Source: Macrostomum lignano (lineage: Eukaryota). From it: a DNA stretch of 64,000 nucleotides. Where the stretch lies: the NCBI GenBank assembly GCA_002269645.1, contig NIVC01000208.1, forward strand, positions 62,001 to 126,000, in the 5' to 3' direction. Within the stretch, counting starts at the first letter, position 1. The number at the start of each line of letters is the position of its first letter. Made by a program: the position numbers and the translations under genes. Under the pieces are notes generated by a model. It had not been told where the DNA came from, made no database searches, and saw nothing but the letters and a program-made list of their open reading frames with translations. Below are positions 3,086 to 52,749 of the stretch, piece by piece.

Positions 3086-4113
3086 CTTCTGAGATGTAAG
3101 GATTGAACTTTCGGTATGAATGGAGGCGGAGTTTTTAGAAGAGCTAATTAGATTTTTAATTTAATTAACGTGTGTTTAATGTGTCGGCTGCTTCTTGTGT
3201 GTCGATGGAATTGAAGAAAAATGTGTCCACATTATGCTTTAAGCGAAAAACCTCAGTACCATTTTAGCTTTTTGATTGGCGTTTTACCGAGCAAAAGTTC
3301 TACGATTGGCTAAGGTTTGCGGACTTTCCGTTAGAGTACCAAAATCTCTTGTATGTTCTATTTGAATCAATTTCTTGTATTTAATCGGCAGTTCTTAATG
3401 CCTGCTTTTCTTGATATTTTTATGGCAGGATGGTAAACGGGCTCAAACGATGCCACGCATTGGTACTTCTGGTAGAGATGGAATATTAGTAATTGGGAAG
3501 GCAAAGTATTGCGTGGTTAATTTTTTTTAAATCTGATAGTTAGGCCGGCTGTCGAATCAGTAGATCGATTCACATTTTTATCAAGCTAATGTTTTTATGT
3601 GAAGTTATGTGAACTATGCAAACTACTGCAGGGAAATTTCCTAGAAAGGAAGCAAATCAGAGCAACTGCGCACGAAACTTGGCCGGGCGGGGGTTTGTCG
3701 TGCGTTTCAAATCAATCAGGACCAATCCCCAAGGCACAGTATTGGCCCGCTTGTAGCTCGGACCACTTCAAATTCTCAAATTCTGTCTTTATTTCAGAAT
3801 TTCGTCTGAAAACTGCTCTCGATTTAATACAATGAAATATTTGTTCTATGTTTAGTTGAGTCATGTCGAAGTTGAAATATCAATCTAGTGCTAAAAAGTG
3901 GTCAGAGAAAATACAGCGAAAAGCGGTTTGAATGCAGTGTAGCCTCCCTTTAATTTGATTTGTCCAGTAGTGTATTGGCTAGAATCAACGACCCAGCTGA
4001 CTTTCTAACTCGTATGAGAGCGTTTGTGAATGAGAATTCTCGTAATTTTTTTCTTTCTTATCCATGTAGAAATATTTTTGTCCATTTCGTGGGCTAGATT
4101 TGTATATGTAGTG

Positions 4114-4378
4114 TGTGGTGCCGGAGCGCTGAGCTCTAGGCACTGGCTAACTAACTAGCTTATGCTATGTACGTGCATCGTACGTGCACACCATTCTTTC
4201 CTCTCCCTTCGCTCTGACTGGCCATCCCCTAAGCCGCCATGTACTTGTACGTAGTTATTTATCATCACGTGACTTTATTTCGGTGTTCTCTCGGCCCTTG
4301 CTCGTGTCATTATATAATAAGCTACTTGCTAGTTAAAATGAACCTTGAGTTTCTTTATGCCAAATTCACGGCACGACA
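4114..4378 (+). repeat. 5' LTR
   Basis: TGTGGTGCC...GGCACGACA; differs from the 3' LTR at two positions that I could see. Confidence 0.95.
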
Positions 4379-4379
4379 A

Positions 4380-4430
4380 TGGCGTCGCAAGCAGGATTCG
4401 AACCTGCGCGGGGAAACCCCATTGGATTTC
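4380..4430 (+). other. Extended primer-binding site: 51-nt complement of the 3' part of mature tRNA-Ser
   Basis: Reverse complement is GAAA TCCAA TGGGGTTTCCCCG C GCAGG TTCGAAT CCTGC TTGCGAC G CCA. This gives part of the anticodon loop, a long variable arm, T arm, acceptor strand, discriminator G and CCA, matching the known animal tRNA-Ser layout. Confidence 0.9.
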
Positions 4431-4437
4431 CTGATGC

Positions 4438-6375
4438 TTCCTGGGGTATCGCATCTCAGCGGATGGAGTTCGGCCAGACAAGAAGCTGGTGGAGAAGATC
4501 CAGAAGGTCAAGCCGCCCACGACGAGGAAGGAGCTGGAGTCGTTTCTGGGGCTCACCAACTATTATGCGCGCTACATCCAGGCCTACTCGGAGAAGATTG
4601 AGCCCTTGACTGCTTTGAGGAGTCAGAAGTCCAGCTTTGTGTGGGGCCTGGAGCAGCAAAAGGCTTTCGAAGACCTCAAGCGAGCCTTGGCGGTGTACCC
4701 GGTTATCCGCATATTCGATCCCAGGAAGCTGACCACCCTGACGACAGATGCCAGCGAGTCCGCAGTATCGGGAATCCTCAGCCAAGACGGCCACCCGGTG
4801 CTGTACCTGTCAAGGCGCCTCTCACCCGCCGAGCGCAACAATTCCAACATCGAGCGGGAGGCTCTGACGGTCGTCTGGGCAACTCAGCGAGCAAAGCACT
4901 TTCTATTGGGCAAGAAATTCCTGCTTCAGTGCGACCACCAGCCACTGGAATTCATCTTCGGACCCAGTCGGGAGCTTCCCAAGGTGACTTCGGCGCGGAT
5001 CATGCGGTGGGCCATTCAGCTTGCCGCGTTCGACTTCGACATCGCCTACGTCAAGGGCAACAGCATCCCTCACGTGGATGCCATGTCCCGGATGCCATTC
5101 GAGAGCAATGATGACGGCGATTCTAGTGGCGATGGTGGCTTCATCCACTGGACCGAGACTGACCTGTTGAGGCTTGAGGAAATCCGCCAGGGAACAGACA
5201 TCGACCCAGTGCTCAAGAGCATCAAGCGCCGGATCCAGAAGAATGTCTGGTCCAACTGCTCGGCTGCAGAGCGTCCGTTCAAGGCTGTCCGTCATCAGTT
5301 GACGATCGAAGACGGCGTCGTATGCTGCGGAGACCTGCTGGACCCGCCTGCCGCGGTCCGCAGTAAAATGCTGCAAGCGGCTCACGGAGTGACCCACAGC
5401 GGAGCGCTGGCGACGCGAAATCGACTCAAACGCGAAGCATGGTGGCCGGGGCACTGCGATGATGTTGAGCGGTTTGTGAAGCAGTGCGCGACATGTACGA
5501 GGATCCGACCACTGCCCAATCGCACGGTGCACACGTGGCCTACCGAGGAGACGCCTTGGAAGCGGGTGCACATGGACCATGCTCACGTGTCGGGAGTCGG
5601 CCTGATTCTGGTGCTGGTTGATGCTTTCTCTGGCTGGCCGGAAGCCGTGCACGTGGCAGACAAGAGCGCGAGGACGGTGATTCGAGTTCTACGGGCCATC
5701 TTCGCGAGGCAAGGCGTGCCGCACACTCTGGTGTCCGACAACGCACCAGAGTTCCACGATCAGGAGCTTCAAGGCTGGCTGGAGCGGATCGGCTGCAATC
5801 AGCTCTTCACGCCGCCGTACCACCCGCAGTCCAATGGCTGCGCCGAGCGGATGGTGCAGACTGTCAAGCGAGGACTCAAGGCGTTTGCAGCTCATCAAGG
5901 ACCATTTGACGCATACCTGGCCAAGCTCCTGCTGAACTACCGAGCGACTCCACGTAGTGACGGCCGAGGCAGCCCCTCAGCGCTGATGGGTCGGCAGCTG
6001 AGAAGCCCGTTGACGCTGACCTTCGAGACGGACGCCCCGGTCGTTTACCAAGCTCGTCAAAGCGCACAGCCCGAGCTTGCTGAGTTCGTCGTGCAGGCCG
6101 GGCACAACACGGCGATCGTCACCCGGACCGAGTCGGACCGGCCCGTCCTGGCGCACAGGGGCCAGCTTCGCCCACTGCTGGCCGCGGCCGGGTCGGAGGC
6201 CGAAGGAGGCCGTCCGGAGCTCAACGTATCGGAGGCGCCGACCAACGATTCGGGAGAGTCAGCGACTGTTGAGCATCCTCAAGCCGGTGAGCTCGATACG
6301 GCTGATACGGGGCTCAGGAGGAGCCAGCGCGGCAACAAGGGCGTTCCTCCTGACCGCTTGACAGCTCGTTGGTGA
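4438..6375 (+). pseudogene. pol: 5'-truncated gypsy pol (RT thumb, RNase H, integrase), 646 open codons
   Basis: FLGYRISADG RT end; RNase H motifs TDAS, EREAL, CDHQPL; HHCC zinc finger (AHGVTH..CATC); D-D-E core (HMDH, VSDNAPEF, SNGCAER). Confidence 0.9.
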
Positions 6376-6383
6376 TGACGGGA

Positions 6384-6648
6384 TGTGGTGCCGGAGCGCT
6401 GAGCTCTAGGCACTGGCTAACTAACTAGCTTATGCTATGTACGTGCATCGTACGTGCACACCATTCTTTCCTCTCCCTTCGCTCTGACTGGCCATCCCCT
6501 AAGCCGCCATGTACTTGTACGTAGTTATTTATCATCACGTGACTTTATTTCGGTGTTCTCTCGGCCCTTGCTCGTGTCATTATTTAATAAGCTACTTGCT
6601 AGTTAAAATAAACCTTGAGTTTCTTTATGCCAAATTCACGGCACGACA
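6384..6648 (+). repeat. 3' LTR
   Basis: Direct repeat of 4114-4378, preceded by a short, weak purine-rich tract. Confidence 0.95.
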
Positions 6649-7790
6649 TATATGTAGTGTAAATTCAATTTAAGTATATTAAACTTTTCAGGCAAAATGA
6701 CTAGAAATCGTCTACTGAAGAGTAGAAACTATTGACTGTGTCTTTAATATTGCTTTAGTCAATCTCATGTTGGCTGGTATCATGTTTTAGTTTATGGATA
6801 TTCTGCAGATAATTTCCTGCAGACGTTGACCACGGAACAAAAACCAGAGTAATACTGGTCATAGTCCTTCAAAGACAGATCTATTTTTGGAATTTTATAG
6901 GTAAAACTGTAAAATATCAAACAGGCAAACACGACCCTACACCAAGACTGTAATTTTTATCATTGTTTCCATACTTGTAGCATGCAATTACATGTAGAAT
7001 CAAGTCTTCGCAGAGACAAAACGCTTCCTGGTCGATTTAGAAAGCCTCGAAACACCAAGCGACCCGTGAGTCGGCACCAAACGTCGAGGGCATCCAACGA
7101 CAGCTGGATAAGCATTAGTTCCTGATGTGACAAGTGTCCGTCTGGTCATCTCAGAGCAAAAGTCTGTAGTGATGTGCGTGCCAATCGAAATTGAGGTTGC
7201 AGTTTTGCGCTAGGCGCTGATGCACAGGCGACTGAACTTGCAGAGTTTAGAAATATTTAAAAGTAGCATAAATAGCTACTTAATAAAGCATTGGCTTTTT
7301 TATACACAAAAGGAATCAACCTCATGCGCAAGGGAAATGCTGTACCAGTGCATTTTGCTTGAAGCGTGTGTCAACAACTGAAGCGGAAGAGTTTAAATGT
7401 ACTAAACTTGTGACATTTGACTGTCCATCAATCAGTGAATAAATCGATTTTCTTCTATTTTAACAAAAAAGAGACAGGAATGCAGTGAATAGGAGAAAAC
7501 AGCTTAGGGAATTCAACTCAACCATTTTTTATTGACGGCAATTTAAAATCTCGAGTAGCTTCTTATTTGAATTGAGAGAAGCATTCATGACATCATCATT
7601 GCCCACCTCTTTCAAACTTGTGAGAACTAAAGCAAATAAAAAGATGGAAACCAGACATCTCTACAGCAGATGCTATCATCGAAGGTGCATGGTATTTTTC
7701 CTTGAATAAAATTTCGAAAACAAGTTCGGAATTATTCATTTTTGCTGATCACTTGAATCCTGTCGTAGTTAATTTGTAGTTTTCCTTTCA

Positions 7791-23232: not shown

Positions 23233-25767
23233 TGTGGTGCCGGAGCGCTGAGCTCTAGGCACTGGCTAACTAACTAGCTTATGCTATGTACGTGCATCGT
23301 ACGTGCACACCATTCTTTCCTCTCCCTTCGCTCTGACTGGCCATCCCCTAAGCCGCCATGTACTTGTACGTAGTTATTTATCATCACGTGACTTTATTTC
23401 GGTGTTCTCTCGGCCCTTGCTCGTGTCATTATATAATAAGCTACTTGCTAGTTAAAATGAACCTTGAGTTTCTTTATGCCAAATTCACGGCACGACAATG
23501 GCGTCGCAAGCAGGATTCGAACCTGCGCGGGGAAACCCCATTGGATTTCCTGATGCTTCCTGGGGTATCGCATCTCAGCGGATGGAGTTCGGCCAGACAA
23601 GAAGCTGGTGGAGAAGATCCAGAAGGTCAAGCCGCCCACGACGAGGAAGGAGCTGGAGTCGTTTCTGGGGCTCACCAACTATTATGCGCGCTACATCCAG
23701 GCCTACTCGGAGAAGATTGAGCCCTTGACTGCTTTGAGGAGTCAGAAGTCCAGCTTTGTGTGGGGCCTGGAGCAGCAAAAGGCTTTCGAAGACCTCAAGC
23801 GAGCCTTGGCGGTGTACCCGGTTATCCGCATATTCGATCCCAGGAAGCTGACCACCCTGACGACAGATGCCAGCGAGTCCGCAGTATCGGGAATCCTCAG
23901 CCAAGACGGCCACCCGGTGCTGTACCTGTCAAGGCGCCTCTCACCCGCCGAGCGCAACAATTCCAACATCGAGCGGGAGGCTCTGACGGTCGTCTGGGCA
24001 ACTCAGCGAGCAAAGCACTTTCTATTGGGCAAGAAATTCCTGCTTCAGTGCGACCACCAGCCACTGGAATTCATCTTCGGACCCAGTCGGGAGCTTCCCA
24101 AGGTGACTTCGGCGCGGATCATGCGGTGGGCCATTCAGCTTGCCGCGTTCGACTTCGACATCGCCTACGTCAAGGGCAACAGCATCCCTCACGTGGATGC
24201 CATGTCCCGGATGCCATTCGAGAGCAATGATGACGGCGATTCTAGTGGCGATGGTGGCTTCATCCACTGGACCGAGACTGACCTGTTGAGGCTTGAGGAA
24301 ATCCGCCAGGGAACAGACATCGACCCAGTGCTCAAGAGCATCAAGCGCCGGATCCAGAAGAATGTCTGGTCCAACTGCTCGGCTGCAGAGCGTCCGTTCA
24401 AGGCTGTCCGTCATCAGTTGACGATCGAAGACGGCGTCGTATGCTGCGGAGACCTGCTGGACCCGCCTGCCGCGGTCCGCAGTAAAATGCTGCAAGCGGC
24501 TCACGGAGTGACCCACAGCGGAGCGCTGGCGACGCGAAATCGACTCAAACGCGAAGCATGGTGGCCGGGGCACTGCGATGATGTTGAGCGGTTTGTGAAG
24601 CAGTGCGCGACATGTACGAGGATCCGACCACTGCCCAATCGCACGGTGCACACGTGGCCTACCGAGGAGACGCCTTGGAAGCGGGTGCACATGGACCATG
24701 CTCACGTGTCGGGAGTCGGCCTGATTCTGGTGCTGGTTGATGCTTTCTCTGGCTGGCCGGAAGCCGTGCACGTGGCAGACAAGAGCGCGAGGACGGTGAT
24801 TCGAGTTCTACGGGCCATCTTCGCGAGGCAAGGCGTGCCGCACACTCTGGTGTCCGACAACGCACCAGAGTTCCACGATCAGGAGCTTCAAGGCTGGCTG
24901 GAGCGGATCGGCTGCAATCAGCTCTTCACGCCGCCGTACCACCCGCAGTCCAATGGCTGCGCCGAGCGGATGGTGCAGACTGTCAAGCGAGGACTCAAGG
25001 CGTTTGCAGCTCATCAAGGACCATTTGACGCATACCTGGCCAAGCTCCTGCTGAACTACCGAGCGACTCCACGTAGTGACGGCCGAGGCAGCCCCTCAGC
25101 GCTGATGGGTCGGCAGCTGAGAAGCCCGTTGACGCTGACCTTCGAGACGGACGCCCCGGTCGTTTACCAAGCTCGTCAAAGCGCACAGCCCGAGCTTGCT
25201 GAGTTCGTCGTGCAGGCCGGGCACAACACGGCGATCGTCACCCGGACCGAGTCGGACCGGCCCGTCCTGGCGCACAGGGGCCAGCTTCGCCCACTGCTGG
25301 CCGCGGCCGGGTCGGAGGCCGAAGGAGGCCGTCCGGAGCTCAACGTATCGGAGGCGCCGACCAACGATTCGGGAGAGTCAGCGACTGTTGAGCATCCTCA
25401 AGCCGGTGAGCTCGATACGGCTGATACGGGGCTCAGGAGGAGCCAGCGCGGCAACAAGGGCGTTCCTCCTGACCGCTTGACAGCTCGTTGGTGATGACGG
25501 GATGTGGTGCCGGAGCGCTGAGCTCTAGGCACTGGCTAACTAACTAGCTTATGCTATGTACGTGCATCGTACGTGCACACCATTCTTTCCTCTCCCTTCG
25601 CTCTGACTGGCCATCCCCTAAGCCGCCATGTACTTGTACGTAGTTATTTATCATCACGTGACTTTATTTCGGTGTTCTCTCGGCCCTTGCTCGTGTCATT
25701 ATTTAATAAGCTACTTGCTAGTTAAAATAAACCTTGAGTTTCTTTATGCCAAATTCACGGCACGACA
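23233..25767 (+). mobile_element. Second copy of the deleted gypsy element (LTRs 23233-23497 and 25503-25767; tRNA-Ser copy 23499-23549; pol 23557-25494)
   Basis: Offset 19119 from the first copy, with the same translated pol, same flanks and same LTR differences. It was copied by segmental duplication, not by a new insertion. Confidence 0.95.
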
Positions 25768-52738: not shown

Positions 52739-52749
52739 TATATGTAGTG
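52739..52749. other. Empty (pre-insertion) site of the gypsy element
   Basis: Single TATATGTAGTG between flanks that match both sides of the element in units 1 and 2. Confidence 0.85.

Follow-up and report, generated by a model that had tools for sequence, protein, structure and literature searches.

An over-long copy of primer tRNA-Ser at the deletion junction of a Gypsy retrotransposon in Macrostomum lignano, and similar copies elsewhere in the genome

The stretch that we analysed, hereafter the window, comprises 64,000 nt of Macrostomum lignano contig NIVC01000208.1. At 4114-6648 it holds a 2535-bp LTR element, whose 265-nt LTRs are 99% alike and whose parts are as follows.

4103..4113, + strand: left copy of an 11-bp target-site duplication; the 11 bp occur once at three empty paralogous sites
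4114..4378, + strand: 5' LTR, 265 nt, TG...CA, with two differences from the 3' LTR
4380..4393, + strand: normal 14-nt primer-binding site (PBS) of the family, for tRNA-Ser; 10 of 10 relatives match up to here and no further
4380..4430, + strand: 51 nt exactly complementary to mature tRNA-Ser from CCA to position 35 (the isodecoder being AGA or CGA, with T67)
4431, + strand: C opposite tRNA position 34, maybe inosine read as G
4432..4434, + strand: 3-nt filler found neither in the tRNA nor in parent pol; a 6-nt repeat of pol 4438-4443 takes in its first two bases
4435..6375, + strand: retained pol with the RT end, RNase H and integrase (domain search); 646 open codons without a start
6371..6383, + strand: purine-rich stretch ahead of the 3' LTR, in the PPT position, as in relatives
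6384..6648, + strand: 3' LTR
6649..6659, + strand: right copy of the 11-bp target-site duplication

The element has the paired LTRs with TG...CA ends, the PBS and the PPT of Ty3/Gypsy elements, and the family can be assigned to Ty3/Gypsy because relative L032 and the window remnant follow the domain order protease, RT, RNase H, integrase. The 4-6 bp target-site duplication of that group is found in the family (5 bp in 4 of 4 relatives) but not in the window insertion (11 bp). The window element is a young, dead, internally deleted Gypsy retrotransposon. The window as a whole (1-64000) is a tandem array of large duplicated units, with a repeat of about 19 kb and minisatellites of 8, 15, 18 and 23 nt.

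The tRNA copy begins one base past the end of the 5' LTR. A sequence-only reading had recognised a 51-nt copy of mature tRNA-Ser at this place, and the match proved exact, CCA included: 4380-4430 is the reverse complement of CCA plus host tRNA-Ser positions 73 to 35 with zero mismatches, position 58 being copied without error. When aligned to the host tRNA-Ser genes, as that reading had proposed, the 48 gene-encoded letters matched at 100% (E 4.9e-16), and the matching genes were called tRNA-Ser AGA and CGA by ARAGORN; the first 24 letters of the copy, used as a backwards-read control pattern, gave 0 matches. A CCA after the gene end was found in 0 of 10 aligned tRNA-Ser genes and, in another comparison, in 0 of 3; the genes carry A/T-rich flanks there instead. 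Because the CCA is missing from the genes, the template was a mature tRNA and not a gene; the base at position 34 also fits inosine. Searches of the window with ARAGORN and of 4000-6800 with Rfam gave no match, the fragment being too short.

Although the 51 nt to position 35 stand as first described, the copy may end one base later: base 4431 may be a 52nd copied base, with position 34 read as G, that is, as inosine. An anticodon-arm pattern matched 16 genes (8 AGA, 5 CGA, 3 TGA and 0 GGA), and a tRNA-Ser gene with G34 as the origin of base 4431 was rejected at 0 of 16. Since no gene has G34, a C opposite position 34 would require inosine. Base 4431 alone is weak evidence, as it is terminal, would agree by chance once in four times and is also part of a repeat. 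The same position-34 change occurs in two other copies of the same tRNA and in one copy of tRNA-Leu(AAG), in each case inside a tract that matches on both sides.

The long tRNA copy is not a family trait, because the relatives match the window through the 14-nt PBS only, in 10 of 10 cases with a comparable LTR-PBS stretch. Autonomous members carrying the same 51-nt leader, which the earlier reading had named as a finding that would speak against it, were thus absent (0 of 10), and a naturally extended PBS of the Ty1/Ty3 type was rejected on the same count. That reading had also taken PBS length to be set by the stop at m1A58; in this family, with its 14-nt PBS, it is not. Four full-length copies carry 1833-1845 more bases between the PBS and the pol breakpoint, so that about 1.84 kb was lost in the window element, and the three of these that were measured show 11-18 differences over 1949 shared bases. 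In relative L032 the missing region holds gag, protease and RVT_1. The earlier statement that gag, protease and most of RT are gone is therefore right for these domains, while RNase H and integrase remain. As a separate observation, the first ATG of gag-pol in full-length relatives lies across the spacer base and the first bases of the PBS (window 4379-4381; L032 1786-4779, - strand); the PBS may thus encode the first Gag residues in relatives, and a second ATG lies 14 codons on.

The join between the tRNA copy and pol is less simple than a direct fusion to the FLG codons. The order of tRNA followed by pol is as had been read, but the C at 4431, the 3-nt filler at 4432-4434 and one pol codon intervene: parent pol resumes at 4435, one codon before FLG. 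The hexamer repeat reported at the junction is indeed present twice (4428-4433 and 4438-4443); its pol copy, though, lies 3 nt inside retained pol, off the breakpoint. A clean jump by microhomology at the pol breakpoint, as originally suggested, was accordingly rejected when checked, because it leaves the filler over and the repeat offset by 3 nt. The 3808 internal bases of the parent hold seven copies of the 4-mer and three of the 6-mer, so few that a repeat near the breakpoint is unlikely to be there by chance. A single slip does not account for the filler, and host end joining could leave the same trace at the join. Part of window 3900-4700 was found in 20 of 24 listed sequencing runs, none of them RNA, which carries no weight either way for the junction.

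A search for other copies with the same junction returned three places (window 4380, window 23499 and contig C2219), all of them one insertion, since the flanks are common to all. Two further parts of the window belong here.

23233..25767, + strand: the same insertion again, lying inside a tandem duplication about 19.1 kb away, with no difference over 1949 compared internal bases
52739..52749, + strand: empty paralogous site with the 11 bp once

The C2219 copy has 7 differences in 1949 internal bases, and its two LTRs are identical. A flank search gave 6 matches, namely three filled sites, all with the deleted form, and three empty ones; no full-length allele of the insertion site was among these 6. 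A re-mobilised deleted form, or a non-autonomous subfamily of the TRIM/LARD type, was rejected, as the three places amount to one insertion without independent ones. At the empty sites the 11-bp stretch that borders the element on both sides is present once, which contrasts with the 5-bp duplication in 4 of 4 full-length relatives. Odd duplication lengths in retroviruses have been tied to uncoordinated joining of the two ends in the passages available from PMC2857682, and the 11-bp duplication here speaks for a fault at integration. Of 7 bases at the target site, 6 agree with the LTR start, a likeness that could by itself lengthen the duplication.

Over-long primer copies also occur outside the window. 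A pattern for CCA-bearing tRNA-Ser copies running past position 58 matched 12 places in four element families, and its reversed control none; all 12 matches follow a CA end, after a gap of one base in 11 and directly in 1. A more general pattern (T loop, CCA, LTR end) matched 63 places versus 16 in its control. Inspection of these 63 rows, 9 of which were judged by an identical matched string in an inspected row, left 12 independent copies in 21 rows, that is, 11 besides the window. Nine tRNA-Glu-like and two tRNA-Tyr-like rows, for which neither a comparison with host genes nor an LTR context was established, were taken out before counting, and the other 31 rows resembled a tRNA in nothing but the pattern. 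The survey yields a lower bound and lacks a denominator. The 12 copies are A (the window), B and C (Ser AGA type), D (Ser TGA), E (Ser CGA), F-K (Ser GCT) and L (Leu AAG). Two LTRs are present in eight of them (A-F, K and L); J is followed by gag-pol, I shares the LTR of K, behind H come a PPT and a second occurrence of its LTR start, and G was counted with its LTR context unverified. The parents of the over-long copies have a PBS of about 11-17 nt, under the 18 nt copied up to A58.

Copied lengths in the 12 range from 47 to 81 nt, and the last matched positions are 35, 28, 23, 33, 39, 5, 36, 28, 37, 33, 33 and 21; seven copies thus end at positions 33-39, three of them right before C32. The copies B, C and D each occur at several places with common flanks, and their 5' LTRs lack the outer end, that of C being only 92% like its 3' LTR. 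Copy I consists of an LTR with its tRNA copy, fused to DNA that is not part of an element. Normal short duplications were seen in 4 of 8 over-long two-LTR copies versus 14 of 16 normal-PBS relatives (scored by eye; Fisher test by hand, about 0.07), which is suggestive of a link between read-through and abnormal outer ends. In L143, a normal-PBS relative of family C, the 5' LTR is clipped and the duplication measures about 22 bp, showing that odd ends arise without read-through too.

The mismatches in these copies are concentrated at a few tRNA positions. There are 19 in 642 aligned bases over the 12 copies, and 16 fall on positions 58 (changed in 8 of 12 copies), 34 (3 of 8), 32 (3 of 5) and 26 (2 of 3). 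The other 614 positions hold three, one of which (copy E, position 67) is a gene variant present in 3 of 4 CGA genes. Position 34 is changed from A to G in 3 of 3 copies with an ANN anticodon that pass it and in 0 of 5 others; C32 is changed in 3 of 4 Ser copies passing position 32, and G26 in 2 of 3. We take positions 58, 34, 32 and 26 to carry m1A58, I34, m3C32 and m2,2G26, as in eukaryotic tRNAs generally. All four are among the seven conserved misread sites (9, 20, 26, 32, 34, 37 and 58) that the accessible text of PMC8062790 lists, in which inosine is read as G. Positions 37 (0 of 11) and 9 (0 of 1) were unchanged among the over-long copies. These counts are to be read with the four positions having been picked after the data were seen, the search pattern forbidding changes at several T-arm positions, and best-prefix scoring dropping terminal mismatches. 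Judged from genomic sequence, the eleven further copies likely preserve a record of tRNA modifications; the window copy has no internal mismatch, its sole modification mark being the one terminal base.

We consider delayed second-strand transfer with an over-extended primer copy to be the best reading of the window element, and a probable one: the tRNA copy runs beyond position 58, the insert lies at the deletion junction with the 3-nt filler between, and the LTRs are whole. A PBS shorter than 18 nt would leave the plus strand stranded, with time to overrun A58. Plus-strand strong-stop DNA would then read past A58 and halt in the anticodon loop shortly before C32 (which is probably m3C32), and its over-extended 3' end would no longer match the 14-nt PBS on the minus strand. 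Docking in pol may have followed, probably first at the 4-nt match, with two templated and one untemplated base being added and re-priming occurring a few bases upstream. The mismatched molecule would have been resolved in favour of the plus strand, and its integration with poorly coordinated ends would give the 11-bp duplication. Formation before integration, in one round, is favoured by the lack of a full-length allele among the 6 flank matches and by the odd duplication, which are not proof. Pulsinelli and Temin reportedly described in 1991 strand-transfer deletions in spleen necrosis virus vectors that bear on the same step; those came from a retrovirus vector experiment and not from a natural germline record.

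This scheme recalls what is known of HIV-1. The part of Hardy et al. 2025 available to us (PMC12657518) describes 44 proviruses in which 7-54 nt of additional tRNA-Lys3 sequence mark a deletion junction, 5 of them changed at position 58. Whole LTRs, a PBS running into primer tRNA, an insert at the deletion junction and some position-58 changes are common to the delayed second-strand transfer set out there as model e and to our copies. The early proposal of an over-extended strong-stop DNA jumping into pol is hence supported by this precedent and by the 11 further genome cases. The HIV-1 proviruses of that excerpt are somatic and defective, from one virus with one tRNA, and position 58 is the only one discussed; here, in contrast, the elements are inherited Gypsy elements of several families, using several tRNAs, with marks at 58, 34, 32 and 26 and a parent PBS under 18 nt. 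According to the sections of Fukuda et al. 2021 at hand (PMC8599865), synthesis of the retroviral plus strand ends ahead of m1A58, and copies that go further are unable to pair with the minus strand. Read-through past 58 likewise gives a 3' end mismatched to the minus strand in our scheme; whereas such DNA cannot complete and integrate in the account of those sections, the copies here were integrated, at the cost of a deletion. Ty1 and Ty3 also have a short PBS, and in both the first strong-stop DNA takes in a longer piece of the tRNA than can pair with it; by the portion of PMC5371799 to hand, in Ty1/Ty3 this DNA is a dead end and its tRNA sequence is not inherited, whereas here the tRNA copy is inherited, via an aberrant route.

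As an alternative, the over-extended cDNA could have been a free dead-end product that was recombined via its LTR into an integrated element and end-joined into pol by host repair. The tRNA record would be the same and only the timing of the deletion would differ, and polymerase-theta-like joining also gives short templated filler. Tying in with this are the tRNA-bearing plus-strand strong-stop DNAs of Ty3, which accumulate in particles as dead ends (PMC5371799, same portion), the filler partly templated by nearby pol, the outer-end losses in the 5' LTRs of B, C and D, which fit recombination into an existing element as well, and copy I on its non-element DNA. The window element nevertheless has two whole LTRs, which are identical in the C2219 copy, no full-length allele is among the 6 flank matches, and the 11-bp duplication would go unexplained; we regard this repair route as unlikely.

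LINE machinery makes tRNA retrocopies, and a retrocopy of this kind or a tRNA-derived SINE might have inserted at the PBS and removed the internal part; tRNA-Ser cDNA does occur outside any PBS in the genome (L206, L210 and L212). Here the copy starts exactly at the PBS, in primer orientation and with the primer's own isotype, it has no tail or duplication of its own, and 12 of 12 pattern matches stand at CA ends in four families, which makes such an insertion very improbable. The SINE that the sequence-only reading had set up against itself thus failed, the segment being a CCA-bearing antisense copy fused to the PBS. Equally, the presence of the junction at three places, together with the extended or bipartite PBSs of Ty1 and Ty3 (PMC5371799, available portion), could suggest the functional extended PBS of a still-mobile non-autonomous subfamily. 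We find this hardly credible, since the three places share flanks and are one insertion, the several places of B, of C and of D likewise share flanks, and relatives lack the extension. An assembly or library chimera deserves as little credence: the junction is known from assembly sequence alone, but it is common to two contigs whose copies have 7 differences in 1949 internal bases, and the changes in eleven other cases are ordered and position-specific.

The mechanism itself is already known from HIV-1; the setting and what the copies record are new. At the level of titles and abstracts in the open-access literature, and leaving older yeast work aside, no paper treated inherited retrotransposon copies as recording several tRNA modifications. 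Compared with mim-tRNAseq, which in the accessible text of PMC8062790 is an in vitro method with another RT, the copies here are of single molecules, made in vivo and fixed in a genome. We lean somewhat towards a broader view, in which LTR families with a PBS under 18 nt regularly give rise to over-long copies as an overlooked by-product, and in each of these the element's own RT has read a single germline tRNA molecule. If this is true, mining genomes would map m1A58, I34, m3C32 and m2,2G26 and the true primer isodecoder for organisms that lack tRNA sequencing, and would show how retrotransposon RTs misread in vivo. On the best reading given above, plus-strand DNA that overruns its primer stop, deemed a dead end, can be integrated and inherited in retrotransposons, primer overrun is a source of internally deleted elements, and assemblies hold a readable record of tRNA modification. 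In vivo RT stop sites on primers, and whether short-PBS families yield more such products, are computable now.

Several individual copies have features of their own. In copy J (L230 1143-1220, C2171) the long tRNA copy is followed by a short LTR-end-like stretch and a second, normal PBS, so that it is an insertion with almost no loss of gag. Copy H (L225 1543-1800; C712, C5093) runs from the tRNA copy straight to the PPT, the whole internal region being lost, and its second LTR is truncated, with an inverted piece behind it. Copy D (L103 1642-1700; C2379, C1210) has the variable arm of tRNA-Ser(TGA) but at position 67 the base of the PBS type, which looks as though the element had supplied the PBS part and a different isodecoder the remainder. 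In copy B (L133 2139-4604) a second LTR element is nested in the opposite orientation. Near 1500 in L206, L210 and L212 a tRNA-Ser(GCT) copy extends from position 57 to the 5' end and is changed at 32 and 26; it has no PBS ahead of it, is fused to unrelated sequence and is RT-made. The uncounted CCA-bearing tRNA-Glu-like and tRNA-Tyr-like copies lie behind CA ends in L227, L233, L228 and L232, and among the tRNA-Glu-like ones one ends at position 10 and one is full length.
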